A DNA stretch of 24,000 bases from Mariprofundaceae bacterium. GTDB taxonomy: Bacteria > Pseudomonadota > Zetaproteobacteria > Mariprofundales > Mariprofundaceae. Shown here one piece after another: positions 690-23,191 of the stretch; the stretch's first letter is position 1; every line of letters begins with the position of its first letter. Under the pieces are notes generated by a model that had not been told where the DNA came from, did not search any database, and was given only the letters and a program-made list of their open reading frames with translations. The position numbers and the translations under genes were made by a program. Location of the stretch: the NCBI GenBank assembly GCA_021734365.1, contig JAIPJD010000004.1:1-24000 (forward strand), written 5' to 3'.

Positions 690-1013
690 TCACTTTTCCG
701 CAACATGAAAGGCCAGTGACTCAACGATCTTTCCCTGTTTGAAATGCTCTTCGATAATTTGATCAATATTTTCTCTGCTCAGATTGTAATACCAGACGCC
801 ATCGGGATGAACCACCATAATCGGCCCCTGCTCACACACCCCTAAACAACCGGCACGGTTGGCACGCACCACAGCCTCTCCACTCTCCAGACCCTCTTCA
901 GCAATACGCTGTTTCAAATACTGAAAAAGGGCGCGGTCCCCTTCCGGCATACAGTTATTACCACAGCACAACATGGTGTGGTAACGGTAACGTTCAATTA
1001 CGGGCTTGCTCAT
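690..1013 (-). CDS. thioredoxin-like [2Fe-2S] ferredoxin
   Basis: 107 aa. Cys pattern CCGNNC ... CLGVCEQGP followed by PIMVVHPDGVWY is typical of thioredoxin-fold 2Fe-2S ferredoxins. The ATG overlaps the cobA stop (ATGA at 1010-1013). Confidence 0.8.
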   Translation of the reverse strand: MSKPVIERYRYHTMLCCGNNCMPEGDRALFQYLKQRIAEEGLESGEAVVRANRAGCLGVCEQGPIMVVHPDGVWYYNLSRENIDQIIEEHFKQGKIVESLAFHVAEK

Positions 1014-1762: not shown

Positions 1763-2396
1763 AAGGCTCTCTGAAACAGTCGGCAACAAAGCCGGGGAAT
1801 GCGGTATGAGATGAGAGTACAGGCCCGACCTGTGCATCAACTCCCGACTGAGCAACCACTCGGCGCACATGCTCCATCGTTCTGCCTTCAAACAGTGCCA
1901 TCGGCTGCACTACAATATTTTGTAACCCCTCGCTACGCCACTCGGCCAATGACTCTTCCAAACCCGGGGATGAATAAATCCCCGCTACCGCTGCATGTGA
2001 AAATCGTTGCGTTAATCCTTCCAAGGCCCTGGTCACTGTTTCGAAACCATCAAAGTGATAGACAGAAAATATCGTGCTGCATTGGCTCGCCTGCAAACCG
2101 GAAAAACTATCAACAGCCAGGTCTGCCGCCATACAGGCGATGGGAATCGCATGGGCCGATAAAGAAGGCAACATCATACAGGCCGATGCTTTAGAAAGGC
2201 GCACAATATCGTTGCGTGCATGCCACCCTTCGCCCAACAACAATGGCAACACTTTTGATCCGTCAGGCATGGGATCGCCGCTCAGGAGACGCAACTCAAC
2301 CGCCTCACCAAGCTCTTCAGAGACCTTCCCTGCAAGTTGCTCTGCCTGAACGGCATGTCGGGAATCACTTGATCCATGTGCCAATAGAATGTTCAC
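1752..2396 (-). CDS. cbiX: sirohydrochlorin chelatase, CbiX/SirB family (class II chelatase)
   Basis: 214 aa with GTG start. The N-half has ILLAHGSSD ... LPLLLGEGWHARNDI. The C-half has IVVQPMALFEGRTMEHV, giving the duplicated CbiX fold pattern. The metal (Co vs Fe) cannot be decided from sequence. Confidence 0.7.
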   Translation of the reverse strand: MNILLAHGSSDSRHAVQAEQLAGKVSEELGEAVELRLLSGDPMPDGSKVLPLLLGEGWHARNDIVRLSKASACMMLPSLSAHAIPIACMAADLAVDSFSGLQASQCSTIFSVYHFDGFETVTRALEGLTQRFSHAAVAGIYSSPGLEESLAEWRSEGLQNIVVQPMALFEGRTMEHVRRVVAQSGVDAQVGPVLSSHTAFPGFVADCFREPYAA

Positions 2397-2782
2397 ATAT
2401 CCCCCCTTTGCAAAAGGGGGGCATGGGGGGATTCAAGAACAGTCGTCTCAATCATTGCCATCACTCCATCCATATTCCGCATGACCTCCCCATTATCAAA
2501 TCGTAAAACTCGAAGCCCCATTTTACTCATCAATTCATCCCGAACCATGTCCCTGTTGCGTCCGTCCTCGGTAAAGTGCTGGCCGCCATCAACTTCGATC
2601 ACCAGTTTTGCACCGGCGCAATAGAAATCGACAATGTAAGACCCGACCGGTTTCTGCCTGTAAAACTGTAATCCATGCAGCTGTTTTCGCCGAAGCCTGC
2701 TCCATAGTGCCTGTTCAGCTTCTGTCATCTGACTGCGTAATCGCCGCGCATTCTGCTTAAGCGCTTTCGGATACGGTTTCAT
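2393..2782 (-). CDS. DUF559 domain protein (Vsr/restriction-endonuclease-like fold)
   Basis: MKPYPKALKQNARRLRSQMTEAEQALWSRLRRKQLHGLQFYRQKPVGSYIVDFYCAGAKLVIEVDGGQH...LRVLRF is the classic DUF559 pattern. I take ATG 2780-2782 as the start, because the ORF-track extension to 2866 merely reads through the flanking repeat. The TGA stop overlaps the cbiX GTG (GTGA). Confidence 0.85.
   Translation of the reverse strand: MKPYPKALKQNARRLRSQMTEAEQALWSRLRRKQLHGLQFYRQKPVGSYIVDFYCAGAKLVIEVDGGQHFTEDGRNRDMVRDELMSKMGLRVLRFDNGEVMRNMDGVMAMIETTVLESPHAPLLQRGDM
2402..2433. repeat. left inverted repeat flanking the DUF559 gene (CCCCCTTTGCAAAAGGGGG-GCATG-GGGGGATT)
   Basis: Matches the reverse complement of 2783-2814 at 27/32 positions (hand alignment). 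The core is itself a near-palindrome capable of forming a hairpin. Confidence 0.8.
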
Positions 2783-2814
2783 AATCCCCCTCAATCCCCC
2801 TTTTGCAAAGGGGG
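2783..2814. repeat. right inverted repeat flanking the DUF559 gene (AATCCCCC-TCAAT-CCCCCTTTTGCAAAGGGGG)
   Basis: Partner of 2402-2433. It abuts the DUF559 ATG and provides a GAGGGGG SD-like stretch on the minus strand. Confidence 0.8.
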
Positions 2815-2874
2815 AAGGCTGAACATCGTTACAGCAGTCGATCGAGCACAGCACCCTGGCCATCAAGGGAGAGG

Positions 2875-3411
2875 TTAGAACTCAATCCCCTGCGTTGCTT
2901 TGATGCCCTGCTCAAAGGCGTGCCTGATCATTTTCATCTCGGTGACGGTATCAGCAACATCAACTACTTCGGGAGAAGCATTGCGCCCGGTCAAAATAAG
3001 ATGCATCCATTTGGGCTTCTCACTGCGGATAAACCCGGCAATCTCCTCGCCCGATATCCAGCCGTAACCGGTGCAGTAATTGATCTCATCGAATACAACC
3101 ATGTCAAAATCATGCGACCGTACTTTTGCCTTGCACAGCTCCCATATCTCGCGGCTGGTTCTGATATCCTGCTCAGGATTTTTTGTATCCCAGGTAAATC
3201 CGTCACCAGGTGCATGCCACTCAATATTGCCGAACTTCTCCGCCGCCTTCTGCTCGCCGGTCTTCCACTTCCCCTTGATAAACTGGATCACGCACACTTT
3301 CATACCCCAGCCTGCTGCACGAAACGCCATACCGAAGGCACTGGAGGATTTACCCTTCCCCTCACCGGTGTTAACAACAACCACTCCTGTCCGTCTGTCG
3401 CGTGATTTCAA
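2875..3411 (-). CDS. cobO: cob(I)yrinic acid a,c-diamide / cobalamin adenosyltransferase (CobO/BtuR type)
   Basis: VVVNTGEGKGKSSSAFGMAFRAAGWGMKVCVIQFIKGKW ... DMVVFDEINY ... HLILTGRNA is a typical CobO/BtuR P-loop protein. TTG start overlaps the btuD stop (TTGA). Confidence 0.9.
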   Translation of the reverse strand: MKSRDRRTGVVVVNTGEGKGKSSSAFGMAFRAAGWGMKVCVIQFIKGKWKTGEQKAAEKFGNIEWHAPGDGFTWDTKNPEQDIRTSREIWELCKAKVRSHDFDMVVFDEINYCTGYGWISGEEIAGFIRSEKPKWMHLILTGRNASPEVVDVADTVTEMKMIRHAFEQGIKATQGIEF

Positions 3412-4142
3412 GCCCCATCTCCATAATCCGGAATCAAAAGCTTACCCTGCCCGATAAGTGGCGTATCAAACAAGGTTGAAAGCCTGCCGATTGTAAGCAT
3501 CCGGTTGGCAGGACCGCATTGAGCACTGCCGTTGCCATCAATCAGAATGACTGAATCCGCAACAGCTGCCGCCTGCTGCAGATCGTGCAGGACAGTCACG
3601 ATGGTTCGTCCTGAAGCAGCCTGCTTCTTCATCATTTTCAGGCAATGTGCCTGATGCCTGAGATCGAGGTGAGTGGTTGGCTCATCAAGCAACCAGACGG
3701 GTGCTTCGCGCAGCATCAGTGCAGCAAGCTCCACGCGCTGGCGCTCACCGCTGGAAAGCTCTGCCAGAGGTCTGTTCAGAAGATCCTCGATCTCCATGGC
3801 TAAAGCAGCAGGCGGCATATCACAATCATCTTCTCCATGGGCAAGAAGCAGTCGTTGTTTCACCGTCAGGCCGAATTCAGTGGGTGGTAGTTCACCCTGC
3901 CATGCAACATCTCTGGCCAGCTCGTGCCTTTTGTAGCCTGTGATAGCTACCCCGTTTAGCAGCAGTTCACCATCAGCCGGAATCAGTCCGGCAAGAGCCA
4001 GCAGGAGACTGGATTTTCCCGCACCGTTCGGGCCCAGAATGACCGTGATCTTTCCCGCCTGAATGGAAAAGCTGAACCCGCTCAATAACTGTCTGTTGCC
4101 GCGTTGCAGGCAAAGATTTGAAGCCTGTATCAGTTCATTCAT
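3408..4142 (-). CDS. btuD: ABC transporter ATP-binding protein, FecE/BtuD type (B12 import)
   Basis: Intact Walker A (GPNGAGKSS), signature (LSSGERQR), Walker B (VWLLDEPTTHLD) and H-loop (VLHDL). Sits in an operon with btuC/btuF behind a B12 riboswitch. Confidence 0.8.
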   Translation of the reverse strand: MNELIQASNLCLQRGNRQLLSGFSFSIQAGKITVILGPNGAGKSSLLLALAGLIPADGELLLNGVAITGYKRHELARDVAWQGELPPTEFGLTVKQRLLLAHGEDDCDMPPAALAMEIEDLLNRPLAELSSGERQRVELAALMLREAPVWLLDEPTTHLDLRHQAHCLKMMKKQAASGRTIVTVLHDLQQAAAVADSVILIDGNGSAQCGPANRMLTIGRLSTLFDTPLIGQGKLLIPDYGDGA

Positions 4143-5084
4143 TTACGAACGCCTCAACAGCAGAAACAGGAACACCGGCACGCCGAGCATGGCGGTAAGC
4201 ACGCCAACCGGCAGTTCGGATGGTGCAACGATGGTGCGTGCCACGCTATCCGCAAGCATCAGCAGTATGCCGCCGCCAATGGCTGAGGCGGGCAGTACCG
4301 CCCTGTGCAGGGAGCCGAACATCAACCGCATCAGATGCGGCACGACAAGACCGACAAAGCCGATCGTACCGGCAGCGGTAACTGCAATCGCCGTAACGGC
4401 GGAGGCGAGCAACAGTAGCCGATTGCGCTGTTTTTTTACCTCGACACCCAGTGCTTCGGCATGGCGCTCGCCCAGCAGCAGAGCGTCAAGAGAGCGGGAT
4501 AGCAGGAGCCCGCAGCCGAGCGCCACAATCCAGCTGAGCAACAGCAGCGGGATCGGCAGATCGGAATGAGAGAGGTCACCCATCATCCATGAAAATGCCA
4601 AACCAAGTCCGGATTTGGGTAACAGGGCAAGCAACAGGGAAAGCAGAGCCGACCAGAATGCGGCCAGCACCACACCGGCCAGAAGCATGCGGCCGGAACC
4701 GAGATGGGAAAAGGCCATAACGATGGAAATACCCAGCCATGCACCGGCAAATGCACCGATGGACATCACGACAGCCGATTCCGGATAGATCATCAGTCCG
4801 GCCACAGCACCCACTGAAGCAGACCCTGCCACCCCGAGCACATACGGTTCGGCCAGCGGATTACCCAACAGCACCTGAAACCAGGCCCCGGCCAGCGCCA
4901 GCAGGCCACCGACAGAGAATGCGATCAGCAGCCGCGGCCAGCGCAGCTCCCACAGAATTACAGCGTCCTGCCCGTTGGCTGCAAACGGATTGATCCACTC
5001 CTCCCCAATACCCAGGCAGAGCAGGACGGTGCATACCAGCACTGTCAGCACAAGCACCCATCTGAATGCAGGATTCAGTGTCAT
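4143..5084 (-). CDS. btuC: FecCD-family ABC permease (B12 import)
   Basis: 313-aa polytopic protein with FecCD hallmarks (LRWPRLL, LLGNPLAEPYVLGVAGSAS, LPVGVLTAMLGVPVFLFLL). ATGA overlap with the btuF stop. Confidence 0.82.
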   Translation of the reverse strand: MTLNPAFRWVLVLTVLVCTVLLCLGIGEEWINPFAANGQDAVILWELRWPRLLIAFSVGGLLALAGAWFQVLLGNPLAEPYVLGVAGSASVGAVAGLMIYPESAVVMSIGAFAGAWLGISIVMAFSHLGSGRMLLAGVVLAAFWSALLSLLLALLPKSGLGLAFSWMMGDLSHSDLPIPLLLLSWIVALGCGLLLSRSLDALLLGERHAEALGVEVKKQRNRLLLLASAVTAIAVTAAGTIGFVGLVVPHLMRLMFGSLHRAVLPASAIGGGILLMLADSVARTIVAPSELPVGVLTAMLGVPVFLFLLLRRS

Positions 5085-5869
5085 GGTGTCCGGCTCAACT
5101 GCTGTTGTAACTGCACAATGCCATCGACGATGCGCGGTCCGGGGCGGCTGACAAGATCGGGGTTGATGGCGATAACACGGGCATCAGGAAGCCACTGCCT
5201 CCAGAAGATTTTGCGTGATTCGATTTTACCACTGCGGCTCGGAATAATAATCACTTCGGGATTGGCCCGAACCACGGATTCCACGTTCACACGCATGGTT
5301 TCAGCATGATTCTCCGCGAACACATTATCGCCGCCTGCTGCGCTCAACACCTGTGTGATAAAGCTGCCTCCGGCTTCGGTCATCAGCGGATCACTCCACA
5401 CTTCGAAAAAAACCCGAAGCCGTTTTGTTGTCCGGCTTTGCACAGCAGCGAGCCTTTCGCGCATCTGAGCGACCAGTCTGCCTGCCTGTTGTCCATGCCC
5501 GGTCTGTTTTCCGAGCCGGATAAGATCATCAAAAATATCCTGCAGATTCTCCGGATGGGTCACCATCACGCGAACCCCATGCTGCTCAAGTTTTTGCAGG
5601 CCTTGCAGGGCCGGATTGGATGCGATGACCAGCGTTGGTTTGAGTCTCAGCGAGGCTTCACTGAACAGCCGTGAGTAGTTGGCAATGACAGGCCTGTTTT
5701 TTACCGCTTCGGGAAAGTCACAGTATGCGGATACACCGACTACCTCAGCACCGGCACCCATGGCAAAAAGCAGTTCACAGGCGTGCGGTGACAGGGCAAG
5801 GATACGCTCCTCAGCCCATGCATCGGATGCAGAGAGAGATGCCAGTAACAGGAGAAGAACTATTCTCAC
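5081..5869 (-). CDS. btuF: periplasmic cobalamin-binding protein (BtuF-like, class III SBP)
   Basis: Signal peptide MRIVLLLLLASLSASDAWA, then RILALSPHACELLFAMGAGAEVVGVSAYCDFP, which resembles BtuF. GTG start overlaps the tonB stop (GTGA). Confidence 0.75.
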   Translation of the reverse strand: MRIVLLLLLASLSASDAWAEERILALSPHACELLFAMGAGAEVVGVSAYCDFPEAVKNRPVIANYSRLFSEASLRLKPTLVIASNPALQGLQKLEQHGVRVMVTHPENLQDIFDDLIRLGKQTGHGQQAGRLVAQMRERLAAVQSRTTKRLRVFFEVWSDPLMTEAGGSFITQVLSAAGGDNVFAENHAETMRVNVESVVRANPEVIIIPSRSGKIESRKIFWRQWLPDARVIAINPDLVSRPGPRIVDGIVQLQQQLSRTP

Positions 5870-6483
5870 AGTCGTTTAAACTTCAGACGAAAGCGGTATG
5901 TTCCATCATCAACCGGGAAAGGCTGTGCTCTGGAAACAGTCTGTATGGCTGCACGGTCCAGCATGCTATAGCCGGATCCATGTAATACTGAAATCTGATC
6001 AGCAGCCCCGTTCTGTGTCAGAACAAATGCCACATCGACATGGCCTTCAATACCACGGCGGCGAGCGCTGGCAGGATAGAACTTGAATGATTCCAGGTGG
6101 CTTCTGACCAGGCTGTTTGTTGCGTTGCCTGTTTCGCTGCTGCTTTCAGTTTTTTCCATGGCAGCCTGTCCGGATGCGGTGGTGGTGGTGATCGCAGGCT
6201 CCGGTTCAGAAGGTTCGGTAGCCTGATTTGCAGGAAGAGACATTGCGGCCATTTCTGTATGGGTGACATCACTCTCTTCCAGAGCGATTTGCTCAGTCTG
6301 TTTTACAGGGGGGTTGCTGGCCCTGATGCTGGCAGGCCGGGGAGGTGTGGCGACTTTTTCGGACAGCACTTCTATCGTAACCAGCTCCAGTATGGTTCCC
6401 TTTTGCAACATCTCATTTGTGCCATTGCCAGCCAGATTAAACCAGAGGGTACCCAACAGGCCGTGGATGGCAGCACTTGCCAC
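5866..6483 (-). CDS. tonB: energy transducer TonB
   Basis: SAAIHGLLG (SxxxH TM motif), a Pro/Glu/Thr-rich spacer, and a C-terminal TonB domain (YPASARRRGIEGHVDVAFVL...G..LD.AA...V). The start is given at the only canonical codon (GTG 6483). The conserved FWPW segment lies upstream of it (see findings). Confidence 0.75.
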   Translation of the reverse strand: MASAAIHGLLGTLWFNLAGNGTNEMLQKGTILELVTIEVLSEKVATPPRPASIRASNPPVKQTEQIALEESDVTHTEMAAMSLPANQATEPSEPEPAITTTTASGQAAMEKTESSSETGNATNSLVRSHLESFKFYPASARRRGIEGHVDVAFVLTQNGAADQISVLHGSGYSMLDRAAIQTVSRAQPFPVDDGTYRFRLKFKRL

Positions 6484-6508
6484 CAGCCACGGCCAGAAGG
6501 GTTTGATC

Positions 6509-8461
6509 CTAGAAGCTATAACTTACTCCGCCACGCGCACTGATTGATGCGCCCGGATACAGGCCGATGGCGCCTGCAGGGGAAGCGGCACCGGTGCTGA
6601 TATATTTCCTGTTGGTCAGGTTATCCACGCGCACGAAGAACTCCGCACCCTGCCAGCGATAGGACGCCACTGCATCGAGCAGCAAGTAAGATTGTACCTG
6701 GGCACGTGAATTAAGCTGATCGTTAATCAGGTGATGGGAGCCGACATAGGTTGAGTACAGCGTGGTGGAGAAGCCCTCCGTCCAGTCCGATGTCACATTC
6801 AGACCGACCCGGTTTTGTGGTACGCCGGGGATACGGTTGCCACTGAATGCGCCACCGCTGAAGGTGGCACGAACCAGTGAATAGTTGGCACTGATCCGGG
6901 CAAGGTCATGGGCATGCCAGAAGCCTGCAAGCGTGAGCAGACGATGCAGTGTCGGATCAACATAGTTGCTGTTGGTGCCGAAGAAGCCGATGGTAGGATC
7001 AAGGTAGATCTCATTTTTAAGCTTGGCATGCTGATAGGAGATTTCCAGCCATGCCCTGTCAGTTTCATAACGCAGGCCTGCATTATAGTGCTGGCCTGTT
7101 TGCGGCAACAGGTCGGTGCGAAAGCTTGCTGTAAAGGCTGGTGGCAGCCACTCGGTACGTTCATCCAGTCTCGGAAACCGCACCGAGCGATTGTGATTCA
7201 GGCGCAGGCGAAAATCGCCGAAACCGATGGAAGCCCCGACATCATAAGCGCTCAATCGATTTGATACGGCACTGGTTCCACTGTTCAGAGCATCGTTTAC
7301 TTCCTCGGAGCGAAACCCACCTGTAACCGCATAGTTGTCGTCTGATAGCGTGATCTGACCGTAATAACCGCTACGGTCACGCCTGGCATCCAGACCGGCA
7401 ACAGTGCCTTTAACCCTGTCAATATCAGCGCCGACAATCAGTTGCGTGTTAAATTCACCGTGCTCATGAGCAAGCTTCACTTTCGGGCGCGTGGAGATCG
7501 TGCGTAACACACTGGTGGAGTCAAACGGGAATGCACCACCGAAATGGGCAGAGGAGTCACGACGACGGAATGAGGCAGGCAGATCAAGCTCCACAGGCCC
7601 GGCATTGACCAGCAGGCCTGAGTTGATGAAATCATCCGTGGTGCTGCCGAATTCATCCGGCTTCAGCGTCTGCTTCGGGTTGGCATCCACCTGAGCCTGT
7701 GTCAGAGCACCGGGCAGACCGAAACGGTCGGTGTGGTGATTGCCGCTGCCATACCACATGATGGCGTCAGTGATATCAGCCTCAAAGCGTGCGCCTGCAT
7801 CATAACGTTCGAAACGACTGTTATCGCGATAACCGTCCGTCTTCTGGCCGGAGAAATTGCCTTCCAGACGTACCTTGCCGGTGTCGGCACCCATGCGAAC
7901 TTTACCATTCTGGCTGCCAAAGCTGCCACCGCCCAGCATGATTTCACCACCGGATTCCGGGATGCGGGTGATAATGTTGATCACGCCACCGACCGCACCG
8001 TCACCGTAAAGAACCGAGCCGCCACCATGCACGATTTCAATGCGCTCAATCTGATCCAGTGGAATCTGGGTCCAGTCTGCTTCTGAAAGATCGGGACTGC
8101 TGATACGACGTCCGTCAATCAGCACGACTTTGTTTGATGCCGCCGAATCGCCGAAGCCACCCAGGTCGATCACCGCTTTGGCACCGATGCCGGATGTATC
8201 ACGCACGGTGATGCCAGCCTGGCCCTTGAACAGGTCGGCAACATTCTCGGCATGTGATGCCTCGATTTCACCCCGACTGATGATGGTGACCGGTTTCGAT
8301 GATTGAATGGAAGGGGACTCAACTCTGCTACTGGTGACATTGAGTTCACCAAGATCCTGAGTTTGAGCCTCTGTTGTTGCTGGAATGACGGTCAGAAAAC
8401 CTGCCAGCCATAGTGTGTGTTTAAGTGTATGTTTCAAAGTTTCTCCGCGCCCGCCGCGCAT
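6509..8461 (-). CDS. btuB: TonB-dependent outer-membrane receptor, cobalamin type
   Basis: Signal peptide, a plug domain (ITVRDTSG...VLIDGRRI), a beta-barrel, and a C-terminal aromatic residue (GGVSYSF*). It lies directly downstream of a cobalamin riboswitch. An alternative start TTG at 8437 has a better SD (GGAGaaactTTG) than ATG 8461. Confidence 0.85.
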   Translation of the reverse strand: MRGGRGETLKHTLKHTLWLAGFLTVIPATTEAQTQDLGELNVTSSRVESPSIQSSKPVTIISRGEIEASHAENVADLFKGQAGITVRDTSGIGAKAVIDLGGFGDSAASNKVVLIDGRRISSPDLSEADWTQIPLDQIERIEIVHGGGSVLYGDGAVGGVINIITRIPESGGEIMLGGGSFGSQNGKVRMGADTGKVRLEGNFSGQKTDGYRDNSRFERYDAGARFEADITDAIMWYGSGNHHTDRFGLPGALTQAQVDANPKQTLKPDEFGSTTDDFINSGLLVNAGPVELDLPASFRRRDSSAHFGGAFPFDSTSVLRTISTRPKVKLAHEHGEFNTQLIVGADIDRVKGTVAGLDARRDRSGYYGQITLSDDNYAVTGGFRSEEVNDALNSGTSAVSNRLSAYDVGASIGFGDFRLRLNHNRSVRFPRLDERTEWLPPAFTASFRTDLLPQTGQHYNAGLRYETDRAWLEISYQHAKLKNEIYLDPTIGFFGTNSNYVDPTLHRLLTLAGFWHAHDLARISANYSLVRATFSGGAFSGNRIPGVPQNRVGLNVTSDWTEGFSTTLYSTYVGSHHLINDQLNSRAQVQSYLLLDAVASYRWQGAEFFVRVDNLTNRKYISTGAASPAGAIGLYPGASISARGGVSYSF

Positions 8462-8580
8462 TTTAATTTACGGGTTGAGCATCAATGGAGAAAAACCTGG
8501 TTGTCGGAAGTCATCGGTAGAATCGACCAGCCCACGACCAGCCTCCCGCCGAGACCCAATCCGATTTGAAACCCGCAGGT

Positions 8581-8757
8581 TTCTCACATTGGGCCGGTCT
8601 CCTGGCTTGCCATCATCCTCAGCTGTTTATGCCTTCCCGGTAGTGACACCAGTGGCGTTTCAAACAGCTTTGTCAGGCCTACAGTAGCGGGGGCTGCGCC
8701 GGAATGGGGTTAAATCAACCTTCACCGGACTTCCCGTTTCACTTCGTAATGAGAATC
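8581..8757 (-). promoter_or_regulatory. cobalamin (adenosylcobalamin) riboswitch in the btuB leader
   Basis: The minus-strand RNA contains GGGAAGUCCGGUGAA, GCAGCCCCCGCUACUGUAGG and GCCACUGG...CCGGGAAGGC. It also has the B12 box AGCCAGGAGACCGGCC (reverse complement of 8591-8606). Putative P1 is UUCUCA (8750-8755) pairing with UGAGAA (8581-8586). Boundaries are approximate. Confidence 0.88.
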
Positions 8758-8763
8758 ATTACA
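8745..8763. promoter_or_regulatory. candidate Fur box overlapping a -10-like hexamer of the btuB operon promoter
   Basis: cgTAATGAgAATCATTAca matches the 19-bp Fur consensus GATAATGATAATCATTATC at 14/19 positions and contains a 7-3-7 palindrome GTAATGA/TCATTAC. Minus-strand TGTAAT (8758-8763) is a 5/6 match to TATAAT. No convincing -35 found. Confidence 0.45.
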
Positions 8764-8821
8764 AAAGCACCCAAAGCGGCGGTAATCCTACAGCGGTCAT
8801 ATTTAGAAATCTATCAGAAGA

Positions 8822-10891
8822 TCAGGTGCTGCCCGAAAGGGCCGGCATATCCGTACGGATAACGGGTATGGCCAAGGATAAGTCCCGTGGGTGCTGGTTC
8901 AGGGGCTCCTTAAGGAAAGACTTATCTCTGGCTGAAGGCCTGTCAGCATCTGCCTGAATGCCCAGTTTTGGAACCCAGTTCATCTCCAGCCAGCGGGTCA
9001 GATCAAGCGGCATCTGGGTCAACACGGCCGCACGCACAGAATTGTCGACCTGCGTAGTAATCAGCTTATAGCCAACACCATTTTTCTTCAGTATTTCCAG
9101 ATTCTGCCCGGCGACAGGGAGGCCTCCTTCCAGAGCCGCTTTAAACAACTCCATGCTCCGCTTGCTCTCCCTCGCCACACCACGCCCTTCAGCATACATG
9201 TAGGCCAGGGCATTTTGTGCGGGGGCATAATTCTGTTCTACAGCTTTTCGGTACCAGAACACAGCTTTACTGTCACTCTGCTCTATACCATCACCGCGGC
9301 GATAAACATTACCAATGTTAAACTGAGCTGTGGTATTCCCCTGTCTTGCAGCGGCAAGAAACAGCTCGGCAGCTTTAGCAAGATTATACTCTACGCCCTG
9401 CCCCTCGAGATACATGCTCCCCAGTGTGTTCTGAGCTGCTGCGTCTCCATGCTCCGCCAGCTTCTGAAACAGTTGGGCTGCATGAATCATATTCCTTTCC
9501 ATGCCACGTCCATTGTAATAGAGAACGGCCAGATTATAGGCCGCATCCATATCACCCCGCTCCAGTGCCTTACGATACCAGCTTGCAGCTTCATGCTCGC
9601 TGCGTCCGACACCACGCCCTCCACTATAGAATAACCCCAGAATCATCTGGGCTCGTGCATTACCCCCTGCTTCGGCTTTAAGCAACCACTGGGCGGCGCC
9701 TTCATCATCCCGGTCCATCCCGATACCGCGTGTGTAGAGGATCCCCAGGTTCAACTGTGCTTTTGCATACCCGCTTTCAGCAGCTTTTCCAAGCCAGTAT
9801 AGCGCACTTTTCATATCCGACTCACGGTAACCGAAACCAAGTGTGTATATCACGACCAGACTGTTCTGGGCTTCAGCAAACCCGGCCTCTGCTGCGCTCT
9901 TCAGCCATTTTATCGATTTTTCCAGATCTTTTGGGATGCCTTTGCCCGCTGCATAAAGAATTCCAAGATTCGTCTGTGCCCTTAGCACCCCCTGATTGGC
10001 TGCGATCAGCATCCATTTTTCGGCCTCAGCAACGTTTGTCCCAACACCCTGGCCCAATGCGTACATCGCCCCCACCAGAGAGGCTCCCTCCGCACTGTTT
10101 TGACGTGCCGCCCTTAAAAGCCACTGGAAGGCCTCTCGATCATCCGGTGCGGTACCAATCCCGAGAATCAACACCTTTCCAAGCCGCAACTGGGCCTCAA
10201 CATAATCAGCCTCTGCTGCATTTCTCAGCCACTGCAGGGACTTGACACTGTCAAATGCCACACCGCGGGATTCATGGTACATCATGGCCAGTAAAAATTG
10301 TGAGCCGGCGTCGCCTGCACGTGCCTTGTTTGTAATCCGGCTAACCAGTTCCTGACGATAGGCTTCTGCTTCGGGAACCTTTGCCGCCTCGGCTTTTAAA
10401 ACCCAGTTAAGTGCTTCACTGTCACTCTGCTCAATCCCCCGCCCGTCAGCGTAGATCCCTGCCACCTTGTACATAGCAGGAGCAATCCCTTTCTTTGCTG
10501 CGAGCAGATACCATCCGACCATTTTCTGATCATCTTTAACAGTACCTCTTTCATGTTCGATATGCCCGGCCAGCTGGTACTGGGCCTCTGCATACCCCTG
10601 CTTTGCCGCCATGGTGAGCCACCTTACAGCCTGCGCATCATCACGATCGGTGCCTTTACCCTGTTGATACATCAGCCCAAGTCGATATTGAGCCTCCGCA
10701 TAACCGCTTCGCGCCGAATTCTCAAACCAGTGGAGTGCGTCTTCATACTGGCCGCTTTCAAACGCTGCCTTGCCCTGGTCAACTGTATCCGACTGGACTG
10801 TTTCATAATCTTTATCAGAAACGACAAAATAGACGGCTACAGCGCCTACCAGCACAAACAGAGCAATAAAAATAATCTTAATTAACTGCAT
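8822..10891 (-). CDS. membrane-anchored Sel1-repeat (SLR/TPR-like) protein
   Basis: N-terminal TM helix IKIIFIALFVLVGAVAVYFVV, then about 15 tandem ~36-aa Sel1 units (pattern xAEAQxxLGxMYxxGxGVxxDxxxAxxWxxKAAxxG). A non-repetitive C-terminal region of ~100 aa follows. Confidence 0.85.
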   Translation of the reverse strand: MQLIKIIFIALFVLVGAVAVYFVVSDKDYETVQSDTVDQGKAAFESGQYEDALHWFENSARSGYAEAQYRLGLMYQQGKGTDRDDAQAVRWLTMAAKQGYAEAQYQLAGHIEHERGTVKDDQKMVGWYLLAAKKGIAPAMYKVAGIYADGRGIEQSDSEALNWVLKAEAAKVPEAEAYRQELVSRITNKARAGDAGSQFLLAMMYHESRGVAFDSVKSLQWLRNAAEADYVEAQLRLGKVLILGIGTAPDDREAFQWLLRAARQNSAEGASLVGAMYALGQGVGTNVAEAEKWMLIAANQGVLRAQTNLGILYAAGKGIPKDLEKSIKWLKSAAEAGFAEAQNSLVVIYTLGFGYRESDMKSALYWLGKAAESGYAKAQLNLGILYTRGIGMDRDDEGAAQWLLKAEAGGNARAQMILGLFYSGGRGVGRSEHEAASWYRKALERGDMDAAYNLAVLYYNGRGMERNMIHAAQLFQKLAEHGDAAAQNTLGSMYLEGQGVEYNLAKAAELFLAAARQGNTTAQFNIGNVYRRGDGIEQSDSKAVFWYRKAVEQNYAPAQNALAYMYAEGRGVARESKRSMELFKAALEGGLPVAGQNLEILKKNGVGYKLITTQVDNSVRAAVLTQMPLDLTRWLEMNWVPKLGIQADADRPSARDKSFLKEPLNQHPRDLSLAIPVIRTDMPALSGST

Positions 10892-12419: not shown

Positions 12420-12746
12420 CTACTCACCGGCCTCGGCAATTTCAAATTCATGCTCCAGATTTGAAAGCACAACAAGATCTCTGACCGCTCCCGTCAATCC
12501 GGAAATAACAAACTGTTTGTCTGGCGACCGGCTCCATTGAAGACCTTCAACAAGCGTGGCGATCCCGGAGGAGTCCATGCGCGCAACATCATTCAGTACA
12601 ATCCGGACAGAGCGTACCAGCCGGTCTGCAAAGCAGCCGCTCATCACCTTCCTCAAGGCAGGCGATGTATGGAAATTGATGTCACCTTTCACATGAATGC
12701 TCAGACTCTCTGAACTTTCCCGATCCACACTCACTTCAAACTTCAT
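12420..12746 (-). CDS. STAS-domain protein (anti-sigma-antagonist / MlaB-like)
   Basis: 108 aa. L(S)IHVKGDINFHTSPALRKVM, then RMDSSGIATLVEG (the DSSG motif of STAS domains). Strong SD (AGGAGaccggATG). Confidence 0.75.
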   Translation of the reverse strand: MKFEVSVDRESSESLSIHVKGDINFHTSPALRKVMSGCFADRLVRSVRIVLNDVARMDSSGIATLVEGLQWSRSPDKQFVISGLTGAVRDLVVLSNLEHEFEIAEAGE

Positions 12747-12783
12747 CCGGTCTCCTGCATCCCATTTTAATCACGCTTATCAC

Positions 12784-13677: not shown

Positions 13678-14684
13678 GGCCGCAGATCCAGTGCAGGTGC
13701 CGCAACCGCACCGCCACCTTTCGACCCCTGCCCTTTATCTCCGCCAATAAGCCAGGAACCCTGAAGGTTTTTGACAAGCCTGTTAATCTCTTCAATCGTT
13801 GTACGTGATTCACGCGCCAGGCCCGGAAGCTCCGGGGTTAATTCCGACAGGTCAGAAGCAACAATATCCAGCGATTTGGAAAGCATATCCAGATTACGCA
13901 GCATCGCATTCACATGCTCAACGGTAGCGCCCCCCTCTTTGCCCATAGCTTCGGAAAAAGGCCGGATATCATGAAGTATCGCTGTCATCTCCTTCAGTGA
14001 AGAAGAGAGCCCGTGTGCCACCTGCTGCTGGTTCAGCTCTTCGGCAAACTTCTGCAAATGAACCAGCGTGCCTGTCAGCTGCTCAATCATTACCTCCAGT
14101 CTGTCTCCACGAACACCCTGGGTGACCTCCCGGACTCCGGAGAGAGCCAGGCGAACATCGCCTTTGGGGTCATTCATCCATTTTGCCAGTGAAGCCAGTT
14201 CACTTAGCAGCACATTGGCGTTGCCAACTGCAGGCTTGAGATCTGCAAGCAACTGATCCAGTGAGGCCTCGGTCTCATACCCCAGCAAAGCACCATCATT
14301 AATCGCGGGTTTGTTTTCATCCCCTGCTGTAACTTCAACCACCTGTTCGCCAATCAGCCCCTCTTTGGTCACTCTGACAATAGCATCCTGATGCAGCATG
14401 TTCCGGTAACGGTCAATCAGCTCCATTGTGATTCTTACTTTTCCCTCTTCCTGCAACTCAATTTGATCGACACGTCCGATGGCAAACCCCTGGAACTTCA
14501 CGGGCTGTCCTTCATAAAAGGAGGCCGCTGAAGGTGGAGAGAAAAAGATGTAAAACTTTTTGGCAAACACATTACTGCGCATACTGGCAACCAGCAGCAC
14601 CAGCACCAGGGCGCCGACACCCAGAATGACAAACCAGCCCACCTGCCGCCGCATGCTCGAAACAACATCATCGCGCTCTACCAT
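13674..14684 (-). CDS. MCE/MlaD-family protein with extended helical C-terminal region
   Basis: N-terminal TM (WFVILGVGALVLVLLVA). MCE domain (FYEGQPVKFQGFAIGRVDQIELQEEGKVRITMELIDRY...VRVTKEGLIGEQVVEV). Then ~200 aa of heptad-like helical sequence and a Gly-rich tail. The start could alternatively be ATG 14654. Confidence 0.8.
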   Translation of the reverse strand: MVERDDVVSSMRRQVGWFVILGVGALVLVLLVASMRSNVFAKKFYIFFSPPSAASFYEGQPVKFQGFAIGRVDQIELQEEGKVRITMELIDRYRNMLHQDAIVRVTKEGLIGEQVVEVTAGDENKPAINDGALLGYETEASLDQLLADLKPAVGNANVLLSELASLAKWMNDPKGDVRLALSGVREVTQGVRGDRLEVMIEQLTGTLVHLQKFAEELNQQQVAHGLSSSLKEMTAILHDIRPFSEAMGKEGGATVEHVNAMLRNLDMLSKSLDIVASDLSELTPELPGLARESRTTIEEINRLVKNLQGSWLIGGDKGQGSKGGGAVAAPALDLRP

Positions 14685-15346
14685 ACACCACTCACATCCG
14701 GGACAGCGTCATCAACAATTCTATGCGTACGGGCAAACTTCAGGCCTGAGCCCTCGTGCTCTGATGCGCTGAGGTAGAGCACTCCGGATCCGAGCTCTTC
14801 CAGCGCCACCCTGGCCTTTTCACGGAAAAGCTGCAGTCGATCCGGTGCCATGCCGACATGCACTTCCTGTGCCACAATAACATCGGGCTCCTGCAACAGG
14901 CAGTGGCCCAGACTTAACAGTGCATGTGTAAAGCTGGAACGCTCTCCGGCCTGCTCCTCCAGCCGCTCCAGCCCGACAAGTTCAGCCACTTCATCAACAC
15001 GATTTCTGGCATTCTGCAGCCGTCCTTCATCCCCGCAATAGAGGAAAGGCAACAGCAGATTCTCCCTGATGCTCAGGTTTGCCATCAAACCCCGATGCCG
15101 AATCATACTTCCAACCCGCAGGCAGAATTCAGGCGAGCCCGCGGGAAGGCGCTGATTCCCATGCTGTAGCCAGATAGATGATGCCAGCGACCCCTGCCCC
15201 CCCATATCGGGAAACATCAGGCTTAAAAATGCATACTGAAAGCGGTTGTTCATAACAATACGCACGCTCTCTCCCCGCATCACCCGGTCAGCCGGCAGCA
15301 GATCACCAAAGAGGTTGAGATCTTCCCACTGCAGAATGTCACTCAT
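14678..15346 (-). CDS. ABC nucleotide-binding-domain homologue with degenerate catalytic motifs (MlaF-like pseudo-ATPase)
   Basis: 222 aa from ATG 15346 (ATGA overlap with the mlaE-like stop; the track ORF to 15505 is an over-extension). Collinear with MlaF-type NBDs: GESVRIVMNNRFQYAFLSLMF sits where G..xxIxGxSGxGKSTLL is expected, LSIRENLLLPF matches, ERSSFTHALLSLGHCLLQEPDVIVAQEV replaces LSGGQ...hhhhDE. Confidence 0.65.
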   Translation of the reverse strand: MSDILQWEDLNLFGDLLPADRVMRGESVRIVMNNRFQYAFLSLMFPDMGGQGSLASSIWLQHGNQRLPAGSPEFCLRVGSMIRHRGLMANLSIRENLLLPFLYCGDEGRLQNARNRVDEVAELVGLERLEEQAGERSSFTHALLSLGHCLLQEPDVIVAQEVHVGMAPDRLQLFREKARVALEELGSGVLYLSASEHEGSGLKFARTHRIVDDAVPDVSGVW

Positions 15347-18336: not shown

Positions 18337-21300
18337 CTAAGCAGTCGATGGTGTCTCTTCTGATTCAAAGCTGAATGCCTTCTTCTCAAACAGTGTAAGA
18401 CAGGCAGCCACTACGTCGGCGTCATATAACCCGCCACTATTTGTTTCAATCTCCTCCAGAGCAGGTTTAATGCCAAGACTTGCCCGGTACGGCCGATGTG
18501 AACTCATCGCTTCGACCACATCAGCAACAGCCACAATCCTTGCCTCAAGGCATATCTGATCCCCTTTCAACCCTTGCGGATAGCCGGAGCCGTCGAGCCG
18601 TTCATGATGCTGATGGGCAATATCGGCCACCGGCCATGGGAAGTGGATATCCTTCAGAATATCAAAACCCGCCTGCGGGTGGCTCCTGATCAGGCTGTAT
18701 TCAATATCCGTCAGCCGTGACGGCTTGCTCAGTATCTCAGCCGGCAGATGAATCTTGCCGATATCATGGATGATGGCACCCATCCGGATGCCTTCGATCC
18801 GGCTCTCTTCCAGGCTCATTGCACGGGCAATGGCAGTCGCAAGTTCAACCACGCGCCGCTGGTGGCCGGCCGTATAGGGATCGCGTGCCTCCACAGCCCT
18901 GGCAACGGCGGCAATTGTCTCCTGCAGATTCCGGTGTATCTGCACCAGCTGCTGCTCATTGACTGCCATAATCTCGTCACGATGCAGGCGCAGACGCAGT
19001 GAGCGCACGCCAAAGGCAAGGTCGTCTGCTGTCTCCTGCAGCAGCTTTATTTCCCTGTCCGTAAATGCATTCACACGTTCTGCATAGACGTGCAGCAGGC
19101 CGAAAGCTTTATTATCCGCATCCATCAGGGGCAGCGCAATATCGGCTGCACAATCGGATTTGAGCAGTGCGCCACCCCACTGCTGATAATTTGAATCGAC
19201 TGCAATATCCTGCGTCACCTGGGTTTCTCCGCTCCGGATTGCACGGCCGCTGGGCCCCATGCCGGCTTTATTTTTTGCCCAGCCCGGTTGCATTTTATTC
19301 AGTAATTTTTTCTCAATGCCTGCACTGGCCATGATCTTTATCGACCGGTTTTTGTCATCCTGCGCATAACCCACCCAGGCCATCCGATACCCGTGCTGCT
19401 CAACAATTGCCCGGCAGATGGCCTGCAGCAGATCCGTCTCACTCTCCGCATGTACCAGTTCATGGTTTACCGTACTCAGTGCTATCAGCGCCCGGTTGAC
19501 ATGCTCCAGATTCTGTTCCGCCTGCTTGCGATCGGTGACATCACGGATAGTTCCTACTGCATGCCACTCGCCATGCAGATTGACTGAGGAAAGTGACAGC
19601 TCTATCGGGAATTCCGTTCCATCCTTTTTTAAACCTGTTAGTTCTACAGTTTGACCAATGACAGGCCCTTTGCCTGTCCTGATAAATGTTTTGAATCCGG
19701 AATAAAATGCCTCGTGGAATCGGGCCGGAGCAATCAGGGGGTGCAACTCCTTACCGACAGCCTCGGAGGCCGGGTAGCCGAAGAGCCTCTCGGCTGAACT
19801 GTTCCAGAAGGTGATCCTGCCTTCATGATCCATCATTAGCAGAGCGTCAAAGGCCGACGTTGCCATGGCGTGAACCGTTTCATTACTTTCTGAAAGTTTG
19901 AGCTCTGCTTCTCTGTGCTCAGTCACATCCTCCATGACGTGAATCGATAATGGTTCTTCGCCCTCCACGCACATGGTGTAGCCCTTGTTCAGGAATATCC
20001 GGCCATCTTCCAGCATGATTTCTTCTGCTGCTGCTTTTTCCAGCATCTTTGCACAGCCGGGCAGCGGCCCATCGCCTTTGGGGAACACCTCCCAGTAGAG
20101 CTTGCCGACCACCTCCCCGATCTCCATGCCGGCCTGTTCAGCATAGGCGCGGTTGGCGCGCAGGATGCGTAACTCGCTGTCATGCAGGAAGATCGGATCG
20201 GTGACCGCATCGAAGGTGCTCTCCCAATCCTTTTTGGCTGCTTCAATGGCATGCCGGGACAGGTTCAGATCCTCCAGCATGTAGAGCATGGACTGGCGGG
20301 ACTTTTCCGCCTCTTCGAGGCGTTGTTGAAGCTGCCGCTCTGCATGTACGCGATCAGTAATATCATTGGCCGCAGCGTAAAGATTATTCTCTAAGGCCGG
20401 GGATGCTCGCCACTCCAGCCATCTGTATCCACCATCTTTATGCCGGTAGCGGTTGACAAATGCCGTTGTGCTCTGGCCGGAAAGCTGTTTTTCCACTTCC
20501 TTGTAGGTCATCTCCAGATCATCGGGGTGGATGAGATCAGTAAACGGTTTGCTCAGCAGTTCTTCTTTACTGTACCCAAGAACCGTTTCCCACTCATGAT
20601 TAATCTCCTTGAAATAACCATCGGTTCCGGCAATACAGATCAGGCTGGGGACAACCGAGAAGAACTGTTCCAGCTCATGTTTTGCTTGCTCAATTTCCTT
20701 CTCCACCTGTTTTCGGCTGGAAATATCATGCTCCACTACGAAAGCACATTGCTCCCCGTGGTATTCTATCGCCCGGGCTGCAATCTCGGTAAAGAACGTT
20801 GAACCATCCTTGCATCTGTGCTCAGCCTCGAAATGAACAAGCTCTCCCTTTTTGATCAGCTCCAGTCTTTCGCCGATCTTCTCTGCCGATGATGTGGTGT
20901 CGAGCAGGGTGATCGGCTGATCGATCATCTCCTCCCGCCTGTAACCATGTTTCTCAAAAGCAGCATCATTTGCATCCACAATGACCGGGGGGCCGGACTC
21001 CTCTATTTTCAGAACCATCGCATAGTCTGCCACGCTCTGAAAAAGTGTCCGGTAGCGCTCCTCATTCCGGGCCACCTCTTCTTCGGCCCGCCTGCTTTCG
21101 GTGATATCCCGGGCTGTGGAAAGCGCACCCGTTACGGCTCCGTCAACACCCCTGAGCGCCTTGCAGTTCCAGGCCAGCAGACGCCTTTGCCCATCACTGC
21201 GATGCTGCCAGCTTTCCAGATAAATTGGGTTTTCATCGCCATCAAAGAGGGGTTGAACTGCTGTATATGTCTCCTGTTCTCCCTCAAAATAGAAACCGGC

Positions 21301-21831
21301 CTCCCTGCCGATTACATCTTCACCGAAAAACTCGATCCCCGCCCTGTTTGCCCATCTGTATATCCTGCTGCTATCCACCTCCATAACAATCTCGGGGATG
21401 GCAGCCAATAGTGCTTCGTAGCGTGCGGAAAGGGCCCTCAACCCCTCTTCCAACCGCCTGCGCTCAGAAATATCGCGGAAGATGCCTTGAATGAATTTCC
21501 TGCCATCAATCTCAATCGTGCCGGCAGTTACCTCCACAGGCACGTGATGCCCATCCCTGTGCAGGACAACAACACTCCCTTCGATGGCAGTTCCTTTTTG
21601 GATATTTTGCCGGAAGATATTCTGATAATACCCGGCCTCTTCTTTTGGATGCAGATCGGACTGATGCATGCCAATGATCTCTTTTCGTGGGCGGCCAATG
21701 AGCCCGGATGCCTGTTCGTTTCCTTCAACGATCAGGCCGGTCTCTGCATCGGCCAGAAATATGGCGTCCGGCGATGCCTCGATAATACTGACGTATATTT
21801 TCAGCCAGGCTGCATTGAGCTCATTGCTCAC
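18337..21831 (-). CDS. multi-sensor signalling protein: ~6 PAS domains, GAF, C-terminal HD-GYP (c-di-GMP phosphodiesterase type)
   Basis: 1164 aa with GTG start. Repeated PAS cores each end in DI(T/S)ERK-like motifs (RDISERRR, RDITESRR, HDISSRKQ, NDITDRVH, EDVTEHRE, RDVTDRKQ). A GAF-like block follows. The HD-GYP motifs are HDIGK and HHERLDGSGYPQG. Confidence 0.9.
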   Translation of the reverse strand: MSNELNAAWLKIYVSIIEASPDAIFLADAETGLIVEGNEQASGLIGRPRKEIIGMHQSDLHPKEEAGYYQNIFRQNIQKGTAIEGSVVVLHRDGHHVPVEVTAGTIEIDGRKFIQGIFRDISERRRLEEGLRALSARYEALLAAIPEIVMEVDSSRIYRWANRAGIEFFGEDVIGREAGFYFEGEQETYTAVQPLFDGDENPIYLESWQHRSDGQRRLLAWNCKALRGVDGAVTGALSTARDITESRRAEEEVARNEERYRTLFQSVADYAMVLKIEESGPPVIVDANDAAFEKHGYRREEMIDQPITLLDTTSSAEKIGERLELIKKGELVHFEAEHRCKDGSTFFTEIAARAIEYHGEQCAFVVEHDISSRKQVEKEIEQAKHELEQFFSVVPSLICIAGTDGYFKEINHEWETVLGYSKEELLSKPFTDLIHPDDLEMTYKEVEKQLSGQSTTAFVNRYRHKDGGYRWLEWRASPALENNLYAAANDITDRVHAERQLQQRLEEAEKSRQSMLYMLEDLNLSRHAIEAAKKDWESTFDAVTDPIFLHDSELRILRANRAYAEQAGMEIGEVVGKLYWEVFPKGDGPLPGCAKMLEKAAAEEIMLEDGRIFLNKGYTMCVEGEEPLSIHVMEDVTEHREAELKLSESNETVHAMATSAFDALLMMDHEGRITFWNSSAERLFGYPASEAVGKELHPLIAPARFHEAFYSGFKTFIRTGKGPVIGQTVELTGLKKDGTEFPIELSLSSVNLHGEWHAVGTIRDVTDRKQAEQNLEHVNRALIALSTVNHELVHAESETDLLQAICRAIVEQHGYRMAWVGYAQDDKNRSIKIMASAGIEKKLLNKMQPGWAKNKAGMGPSGRAIRSGETQVTQDIAVDSNYQQWGGALLKSDCAADIALPLMDADNKAFGLLHVYAERVNAFTDREIKLLQETADDLAFGVRSLRLRLHRDEIMAVNEQQLVQIHRNLQETIAAVARAVEARDPYTAGHQRRVVELATAIARAMSLEESRIEGIRMGAIIHDIGKIHLPAEILSKPSRLTDIEYSLIRSHPQAGFDILKDIHFPWPVADIAHQHHERLDGSGYPQGLKGDQICLEARIVAVADVVEAMSSHRPYRASLGIKPALEEIETNSGGLYDADVVAACLTLFEKKAFSFESEETPSTA

Positions 21832-23115: not shown

Positions 23116-23191
23116 TGGTGGAGCCAAGCGGGATCGAACCGCTGACCTCCACACTGCCAGTGTGGCGCTCTCCCAGCTGAGCTATGGCCCC
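23116..23191 (-). tRNA. tRNA-Ala (anticodon GGC)
   Basis: The minus-strand 76-nt sequence is GGGGCCATAGCTCAGCTGGGAGAGCGCCACACTGGCAGTGTGGAGGTCAGCGGTTCGATCCCGCTTGGCTCCACCA. It folds as a cloverleaf with anticodon loop CT-GGC-AG, the G3:U70 Ala identity pair, a GGTTCGATCC T-arm and an encoded CCA. Confidence 0.95.

Follow-up and report, generated by a model that had tools for sequence, protein, structure and literature searches.

For the Gram-negative envelope, the dependence of MCE systems on ATP and the direction of their lipid transport are long-standing questions. Among the described systems, Mla is driven by ATP, and Pqi and Let operate without an ATPase. Here we describe a locus in a stretch of 24,000 nucleotides from a Mariprofundaceae bacterium of the Zetaproteobacteria (GenBank assembly GCA_021734365.1, contig JAIPJD010000004.1, positions 1 to 24,000 of the forward strand), which we refer to as the window. 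Between the genes for an MlaE-family permease (MlaE') and an MCE protein (MlaD'), this locus encodes a protein that has the fold of an ATP-binding cassette (ABC) nucleotide-binding domain (NBD) and has lost its ATP motifs; we call it pNBD, for pseudo-NBD. The components of the system are all of known kinds, and what is new is that an NBD predicted to be fully dead is the rule in a widespread MCE module. We consider it probable that pNBD is a pseudo-ATPase with a structural or regulatory role and that it serves as the cytoplasmic subunit of a second, noncanonical MCE/Mla-type system that functions without ATP hydrolysis.

Comparison of pNBD with MlaF by hhalign gave a collinear alignment with the MlaF profile over pNBD residues 1 to 222 (80.6% probability, 13% identity) and a local match to E. 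coli MlaF alone (18.8% probability). Every ATP-site motif of pNBD is replaced except the catalytic glutamate (Table 1). An initial annotation of this DNA, made from the sequence, had reported replacement of Walker A, the LSGGQ signature, and the Walker B aspartate, and the motif-by-motif alignment to MlaF agreed with it; that description slightly understated the loss, since the Q-loop, D-loop, and H-loop residues are gone as well. The “VG” at the D-loop position of pNBD is common to E. coli MlaF (FVGQD). Because the AlphaFold2 (AF2) model of pNBD places a helix from residue 34 onward, the protein is predicted to form no P-loop. A six-frame regular-expression scan detected no P-loop or LSGG near the pNBD gene, and, together with the alignment, it upheld the earlier statement that no P-loop is hidden in an alternative frame; the sole P-loop NBD in the window is that of a B12/siderophore-type importer (3408-4142).

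Table 1. Genes of the pNBD operon, the kinase gene of related loci, and the positions in pNBD that are equivalent to ABC motifs
Feature	Position	Strand	Basis or remark
pNBD, 222 aa, ABC nucleotide-binding-domain fold without ATP motifs	14678..15346	-	Intact, ATG start
MlaE-family permease (MlaE'), 273 aa	15343..16164	-	Pfam MlaE, 1.3e-39
MCE protein (MlaD'), 336 aa	13674..14684	-	Pfam MlaD, 4e-11; NCBIfam MCE family, 3e-19
TPR lipoprotein, 297 aa	12784..13677	-	TPR_12, 7e-7; lipobox LAAC-G
STAS protein, 108 aa, SpoIIAA/anti-sigma-antagonist type	12420..12746	-	Pfam STAS, 3.6e-12
UbiD-family decarboxylase, 487 aa	10953..12416	-	Pfam UbiD, 6e-81
Walker A equivalent, residues 33-40, NNRFQYAF, without Gly or Lys	15227..15250	-	hhalign against MlaF GGSGSGKT
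Q-loop-to-helical-subdomain block, residues 83-103, RHRGLMANLSIRENLLLPFLY; Q-loop Gln replaced by H84	15038..15100	-	Alignment
Signature equivalent, residues 136-140, RSSFT (MlaF LSGGM)	14927..14941	-	Alignment
Walker B equivalent, residues 156-161, VIVAQE; Asp replaced by Q160, catalytic E161 retained	14864..14881	-	Against FFDE
D-loop equivalent, residues 163-166, HVGM; Asp replaced by M166	14849..14860	-	Against SGLD of the canonical motif
H-loop equivalent, residues 192-195, LSAS; His replaced by S195	14762..14773	-	Against THD
Kinase gene (related loci)	L026:12657-13163; also L012-L036, L038-L040, distant relative L043		

Sequence models recognized pNBD poorly. No Pfam family, ABC_tran (PF00005) included, matched it at an E value of ≤1. 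NCBIfam NBD models matched weakly over residues 65 to 190, the best being NodI (1e-6; 27.8 bits against a cut-off of 521), and the NCBIfam MlaF model gave no match. When PDB was searched with phmmer, MalK was matched at 1.5e-4; a 34-sequence family profile matched the NBDs of PsdA, BceA, MalK, a LivG-like protein, and LolD at 6.5e-8 and weaker, and MlaF was not among the profile matches at an E value of ≤0.01. An AF2 model built on the family alignment was confident (predicted local distance difference test [pLDDT] score, 85.4; predicted template modeling [pTM] score, 0.85). Foldseek comparison of this model with PDB returned 1,091 matches at an E value of ≤0.001, the top ones all being ABC NBDs (TMq, 0.6 to 0.7), with MceG (8fed_H) in rank 14 and MlaF (7d06_B) in rank 42. 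By the model and the Foldseek matches, pNBD has the RecA-like core and helical subdomain that define the ABC NBD fold. The initial assignment of pNBD as an MlaF-type NBD thus stood in part: collinearity, gene context, and the shared D-loop “VG” speak for it, but MalK, BceA, and SugC outrank MlaF. A specific orthology of pNBD to MlaF was rejected on the rankings by both sequence and fold.

Loss of all catalytic motifs, along with the lack of an ABC_tran match, is what would be expected if the gene were a decaying pseudogene or a mis-called frame, i.e., a functionless relic of MlaF. To that reading we assign next to no probability, as the following observations show. The pNBD start overlaps the stop of the upstream mlaE' gene as GTT-ATG-A, an arrangement indicative of translational coupling, and at its other end the pNBD gene shares ATGGTAG with the next gene, that of the MCE protein, whose start overlaps the pNBD stop; the overlaps are conserved, and the motifs are absent from every alternative frame. 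A 275-aa version beginning at a GTG at 15505 was discarded as an open frame extending back into the permease gene; homologues begin at the MSD... methionine. A scan of one genome per species yielded 37 Zetaproteobacterial loci, two isolates (Mariprofundus sp. KV and M. micogutta ET2) being among the sources. The pNBD open reading frame (ORF) was intact in 38/38 orthologous loci, with 0 internal stops and a constant length. Ratios of nonsynonymous to synonymous substitution (dN/dS; Nei-Gojobori method, NG86), calculated against the three closest genomes (dS of 0.4 to 0.6), were 0.10 to 0.14 for pNBD, comparable to the 0.09 to 0.15 of the neighboring MlaD' and far below 1; the values were 0.065 to 0.07 for MlaE' and 0.06 to 0.07 for UbiD. 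Moreover, 23 columns were invariant in a 34-sequence alignment reaching down to 40% identity, and the AF2 fold is confident. We conclude that pNBD is a retained protein under purifying selection and that the pseudogene reading is effectively refuted. The claims that the ORF is intact and coupled to the permease gene and that a frameshift pseudogene is unlikely were thereby borne out.

A database search returned 105 homologues at 43 to 100% identity, mostly of ~213 to 243 aa and one of them identical to the window protein; all of the named homologues in this set came from Mariprofundaceae/Zetaproteobacteria. More remote members, as low as 29% identity, came from an exhaustive HMMER search. Among 117 aligned family members, none had intact motifs, and the Walker A Gly/Lys pattern was present in 0/117. 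The residues that stand in place of the motifs are near-invariant (Q37, 117/117; Q160, 116/117; H141, 116/117), E161 is retained in 104/117, and position 84 is variable (H/R/Q). The signature region forms a family motif of its own, QAGERSxYTHALxSLGxC, in which A133, G134, H141, S145, L146, and G147 are near-invariant. Also almost invariant is an HxGM motif at the D-loop position, as is W7, near the A-loop position. The strongest block of the alignment is R83-Y103, RxRGLxANLSxRENLLLPFLY, with N90, N96, and L99 present in 117/117 members.

The pNBD gene lies within an operon whose order, mlaE'-pNBD-mlaD'-TPR-STAS-ubiD, is kept in every Zetaproteobacterial locus of sufficient length, usually with a divergently oriented PpiD-like gene upstream. 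When the operon was scanned for promoters and terminators, the counts did not exceed chance and were uninformative on transcription units. MlaE' is 34% identical to E. coli MlaE across the core. MlaD' consists of an N-terminal transmembrane helix, a single MCE domain, and a helical C-terminal region of ~190 aa, and the C terminus of PqiB (residues 445 to 520) matches MlaD' residues 197 to 273 at 2e-6. The TPR protein carries a signal and lipobox, MKQLVVLAAMLMLAACGSS (read in translation), and because of the lipobox LAAC-G it is probably anchored in the outer membrane. The STAS protein matches TIGR00377 at 55.8 bits, above the cut-off, and the MlaB model matches only weakly (4e-6; 27 bits against a cut-off of 90). 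The initial annotation had placed the STAS gene beside the NBD gene; it lies instead two genes downstream, after the MCE and TPR lipoprotein genes.

A gene for an RsbW/SpoIIAB-type serine kinase (HATPase_c_2, ~160 aa) lies between the TPR and STAS genes in ~27 Zetaproteobacterial loci. It is absent from the window (12747-12783), from the loci that we numbered L001 and L004-L011, and from L037. We read the kinase as ancestral beside STAS and as lost in the clade of the window and in L037. The DS[SA]G phosphorylation site motif of the STAS protein is kept in all Zetaproteobacterial loci, the kinase-less ones included, and the window has DSSG. The link to a STAS partner is weaker than the initial annotation implied: a STAS gene does belong to the operon, but its product is of the SpoIIAA type, the gene is not adjacent to that of pNBD, and it is absent from the versions of the module outside the Zetaproteobacteria. 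In the Zetaproteobacteria, ubiD always lies immediately downstream of the STAS gene, within a few bases, and it is absent from the non-Zetaproteobacterial modules described below. This constant placement of a gene for a prenylated-FMN decarboxylase suggests that the cargo or function may relate to polyprenyl or quinone lipids, with UbiD as a candidate member of the functional unit.

Canonical Mla genes are found in the same lineage. In four Mariprofundus genomes (L022; L023, Mariprofundus sp. KV; L026, M. micogutta; and L028), an mlaFEDC operon lies ~6 kb upstream of the pNBD operon. The MlaF proteins of these loci are 49 to 50% identical to E. coli MlaF and have intact GGSGSGKT, LSGGM, FFDEP, and VTHD motifs. 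Canonical MlaF is widespread in the Mariprofundaceae; the 120 clusters listed, out of 1,658 matches (E ≤ 1e-60), were 71 to 98% identical to the KV protein. Since the lineage also has canonical mlaFEDC with an intact MlaF, the pNBD system is an additional, paralogous MCE system, and its MlaE' is only 25 to 28% identical to canonical Zetaproteobacterial MlaE. A 1,023-aa ORF of unassigned family lies between the two operons, and together they form a lipid transport supercluster (L023:3283-9123; also L022, L026, and L028). No mlaB gene follows mlaC in the four superclusters.

A Zetaproteobacteria-only oddity was considered and rejected: related modules were found in Nitrospirota, Geobacterales, Gallionellaceae, and ~70 metagenome loci. 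The grouping MlaE-NBD-MlaD(long)-TPR was delineated in this analysis and is not a curated family. In metagenome-assembled genomes of Nitrospirota, the gene after that of a degenerate NBD encodes a 341-aa MCE protein that matches Helical_needle faintly, and a TPR lipoprotein comes next. In these Nitrospirota modules (L046 and L048), a RelB/ParE-type toxin-antitoxin pair sits between the MCE and TPR genes (L046:9701-10161; L048:8731-9210), and there is purL upstream and no adjacent MlaE gene. Two further contigs (L049 and P0169) carry MlaE, a degenerate NBD, and an MlaD of 324 to 334 aa, followed by a TPR protein in L049 and by an unannotated 179-aa ORF in P0169. A metagenome scan, seeded with an alignment whose members share a “GGLISN...LPLYY” block, returned 80 loci. 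Almost every locus of sufficient length has the module; all four module genes are present in ~55/80, and most of the remainder are truncated contigs; the sizes are 256 to 290 aa for MlaE, ~205 to 235 aa for the NBD-like protein, 300 to 340 aa for MlaD, and 270 to 350 aa for the TPR protein. None of the metagenome modules has STAS, kinase, or UbiD genes. The partners of pNBD are clearly closer to those of the module than the E. coli proteins are: against module MlaEs, MlaE' of the window scores a median of 94 bits and E. coli MlaE 69 bits, and against module MCE proteins, MlaD' scores a median of 107 bits and the E. coli protein 42 bits. The alignment of MlaD' with the Nitrospirota homologue spans the whole protein (27% identity; E, 1e-43).

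We tabulated the motifs of 76 distinct NBDs from this set. With one exception, the module NBDs have no Walker A (it is replaced by, e.g., TETEFEKNL, TARQEENEL, or LSSKAEKDA) and no Q-loop glutamine, and they lack LSGGQ (LPVYKKRL or LSLYGRRQ instead) and the H-loop histidine. Outside the Zetaproteobacteria, the Walker B aspartate is mostly kept and the catalytic glutamate mostly lost; the Zetaproteobacterial pNBD is, by its sequence, the most diverged branch, having lost the Walker B aspartate also. The exceptions in the table are three off-target canonical NBDs that have no module and the NBD labeled L050/P0190 (L050:3126-3797). The last has an intact Walker A (GPPGSGKS) and Q-loop and shares the GGLISN block, and its signature (LVNES), Walker B (IFIEEP), and H-loop are degenerate. 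It adjoins an MlaE gene on a contig that ends before any MlaD or TPR gene, and its combination of motifs may mark it as an evolutionary intermediate.

Exact look-ups placed members in Dissulfurispira thermophila, Geoanaerobacter pelophilus, Citrifermentans bremense, and Gallionellaceae; the spread outside the Zetaproteobacteria rests on this handful of named matches. Database records now label them “ATP-binding cassette domain-containing protein” or “organic solvent ABC transporter ATPase,” and those ATPase annotations are probably misleading. Most of the named carriers cycle iron or sulfur (Zetaproteobacteria, Gallionellaceae, Geobacterales, and Dissulfurispira), an apparent enrichment that may reflect ecology, horizontal transfer, or sampling bias.

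A single block, at window residues 85 to 104, is conserved throughout the superfamily. Its non-Zetaproteobacterial consensus is GGLISNLKVxENxxLPxxYH, at 87 to 100%, with RGLMANLSIRENLLLPFLY as the window counterpart, and the common pattern, which follows the Q-loop position, is G-[GL]-L-x-[SA]-N-L-x-x-x-E-N-x-x-L-P-x-x-Y. In established ABC transporter structures, the segment after the Q-loop, which opens the helical subdomain, lines the groove receiving the coupling helix of the permease. By analogy, block 85-104 of pNBD would be the groove that contacts the permease.

These features suggest how the system might work. An MlaE' dimer would sit in the inner membrane, with pNBD docked on its coupling helices. 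A MlaD' hexamer would form an MCE ring extending into a long helical needle, and the TPR outer membrane lipoprotein would be the fourth part, completing a bridge across the envelope; such a bridge is suggested because the C terminus of MlaD' matches the PqiB needle and because the adjacent lipoprotein has a lipobox. Since a nucleotide site needs Walker A and the signature from opposite NBDs and both are gone, pNBD should be unable to form an ATP sandwich. A role in stabilizing the permease is proposed because the fold and, above all, the permease contact groove are retained. In this role, pNBD would stabilize or assemble the permease, fixing its cytoplasmic side or switching it allosterically, and hydrophobic cargo would pass through the MCE tunnel with no hydrolysis of ATP, in the manner of PqiABC and LetAB. 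In the Zetaproteobacteria, a SpoIIAA-type STAS protein would have been added to the operon, ancestrally with an RsbW-type serine kinase. With or without the kinase, the STAS protein plausibly controls the complex through contact with pNBD, much as MlaB binds MlaF; of all the steps, we hold this one least firmly. The initial annotation had proposed a pseudo-ATPase acting as a scaffold or regulator, and the absence of any shifted motif, the intact orthologues, the low dN/dS ratios, and the lack of intact motifs in all 117 family members favor it, with the catalytic inactivity of pNBD being predicted.

Several points weigh against a structural or regulatory pseudo-ATPase. That pNBD does not bind nucleotide is a prediction from its motifs alone, and W7 and E161 are conserved, so a noncanonical ligand site is possible. 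A role as a pure “cap” does not account for how strongly the surfaces of the former ATP site are conserved. The coexistence with MlaF rests on the genomes of relatives, not on the genome of the window itself. Finally, the link between STAS and pNBD is circumstantial, because the STAS protein is more SpoIIAA-like than MlaB-like and is absent from the non-Zetaproteobacterial modules. An alternative is that pNBD is a ligand-sensing pseudo-NBD whose remodeled, highly conserved ATP-site surfaces (Q37, QAGERSxYTH141, AQ160E, and HxGM) bind a different small molecule or a protein; the subunit would then gate the MCE channel allosterically and be more than a scaffold, with a second messenger, phosphorylated STAS, or the RsbW-like kinase as candidate partners. 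Three observations are in keeping with this idea: the substituted motif positions are conserved above most of the protein, W7 is near-invariant, and most Zetaproteobacterial loci have a STAS/kinase partner-switching pair with a conserved DSSG. Between the clades outside the Zetaproteobacteria, however, the former ATP-site residues are not conserved and only the block that couples to the transmembrane domain (TMD) is shared; STAS and kinase are likewise missing there, and no known ligand motif was identified in pNBD. On balance, we regard a sensor as unlikely, and the Zetaproteobacterial clade is where it might apply.

It is less likely still that the system is energized in trans, with canonical MlaF or another NBD replacing pNBD or pairing with it, or with another source of energy such as the proton motive force. 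Canonical MlaF does occur in the same genomes, at a distance of ~6 kb in the four Mariprofundus genomes, and mycobacterial Mce permeases share a single ATPase, MceG, that is encoded elsewhere, which we count in favor of this explanation. A heterodimer of a live NBD and pNBD would nevertheless have no complete ATP site, and a shared NBD interface is unlikely because MlaE' diverges so far from canonical MlaE. Since pNBD is translationally coupled to the permease and is conserved best in the block that couples to the TMD, pNBD itself presumably occupies the NBD site of MlaE'. In addition, the module has only pseudo-NBDs in many phyla. A structural or regulatory pseudo-ATPase remains the reading that we favor. 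A bolder version of it, which we offer tentatively and hold to be doubtful as yet, is that the module is an unrecognized, widespread trans-envelope conduit for lipid or other hydrophobic cargo, built on an ABC chassis that does not hydrolyze ATP, with the NBD as an allosteric latch that in the Zetaproteobacteria is wired to STAS/RsbW-type partner switching, flux being switched by serine phosphorylation.

The window contains further features outside the pNBD operon. A cobalamin riboswitch (Rfam RF00174; 109.9 bits) at 8575-8789 on the minus strand lies upstream of a TonB-dependent receptor gene, in front of a minus-strand cluster (1010-8461) that also encodes TonB, a periplasmic binding protein, a FecCD permease, an ABC ATPase, CobO, and a tetrapyrrole methylase and into which a DUF559 endonuclease-like gene is inserted (2393-2866). 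Also on the minus strand and unrelated to pNBD are a 689-aa Sel1 repeat protein (8822-10891), a 1,164-aa ORF whose C-terminal region appeared HD-GYP-like by eye (18337-21831), and a tRNA gene (23119-23191).

In literature that was incompletely covered, and thus as absence of evidence only, we found no MCE/Mla system with a noncatalytic NBD or a TPR partner. The pNBD module is a natural intermediate, in that it has the full layout of an ABC-type MCE system and an NBD long kept across phyla without an ATP site. It offers a handle on noncatalytic roles of NBDs, such as permease stabilization and gating, and a system in which passive transport through permeases of the MlaE type can be tested; its Zetaproteobacterial version may connect lipid transport with partner-switching phosphosignaling. 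Experiments look feasible, as members occur in the cultured Citrifermentans bremense, Geoanaerobacter pelophilus, Dissulfurispira thermophila, and Mariprofundus spp.

Compared with MlaF of MlaFEDB (E. coli and A. baumannii; PDB 7d06), pNBD has the same fold, a collinear alignment, and the D-loop “VG,” and it is likewise encoded beside an MlaE-family permease and an MlaD/MCE protein, with a STAS gene in the operon. It differs from MlaF in that its motifs for ATP binding and hydrolysis are replaced, save the catalytic glutamate, and in that its 222 aa (versus 269 aa) lack a C-terminal extension of ~45 residues, leaving MlaF residues ~242 to 269 unmatched. In MlaF, this extension embraces the neighboring MlaF/MlaB. 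The MCE partner is also different, with 336 aa and a helical needle as opposed to the 183 aa of MlaD, and the operon has a gene for a TPR lipoprotein and none for MlaC. The degenerate sites of heterodimeric ABC exporters (TM287/288, TAP, and CFTR) provide another comparison; there, degeneration affects just one of the two composite sites, and ATP still binds, with Walker A retained. As in those exporters, the signature, Walker B, and H-loop consensus are lost in pNBD and the domain is kept under selection, but in pNBD, which is presumably homodimeric, both Walker A and the signature are gone, leaving no way to build a complete site. With PqiABC and LetAB, the pNBD system shares an MCE protein that has a C-terminal helical needle, an outer membrane lipoprotein partner encoded alongside, and the proposed ATP-independent passage. 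PqiA and LetA, unlike MlaE', do not belong to the ABC permeases, and nothing resembling an NBD accompanies them; the lipoprotein of the pNBD operon is a TPR protein and not PqiC/DUF330. The P. aeruginosa genes PA3211-PA3214 encode a tripartite ABC/MCE/lipoprotein system in which PA3212 is described as an ATPase (PMC13631591). The tripartite layout is shared with the pNBD system, and the ATPase PA3212 sets it apart. In Mycobacterium tuberculosis, MceG is reported to stabilize the Mce1 and Mce4 transporters (PMC9947336), a possible precedent for an NBD that plays a structural part in an MCE system. Like MceG (Mkl), its structural neighbor, pNBD is the NBD of an MCE system and is proposed to have a stabilizing role; unlike MceG, which is a functional ATPase with a gene apart from the mce operons, pNBD has its gene inside the operon and lacks the catalytic motifs.

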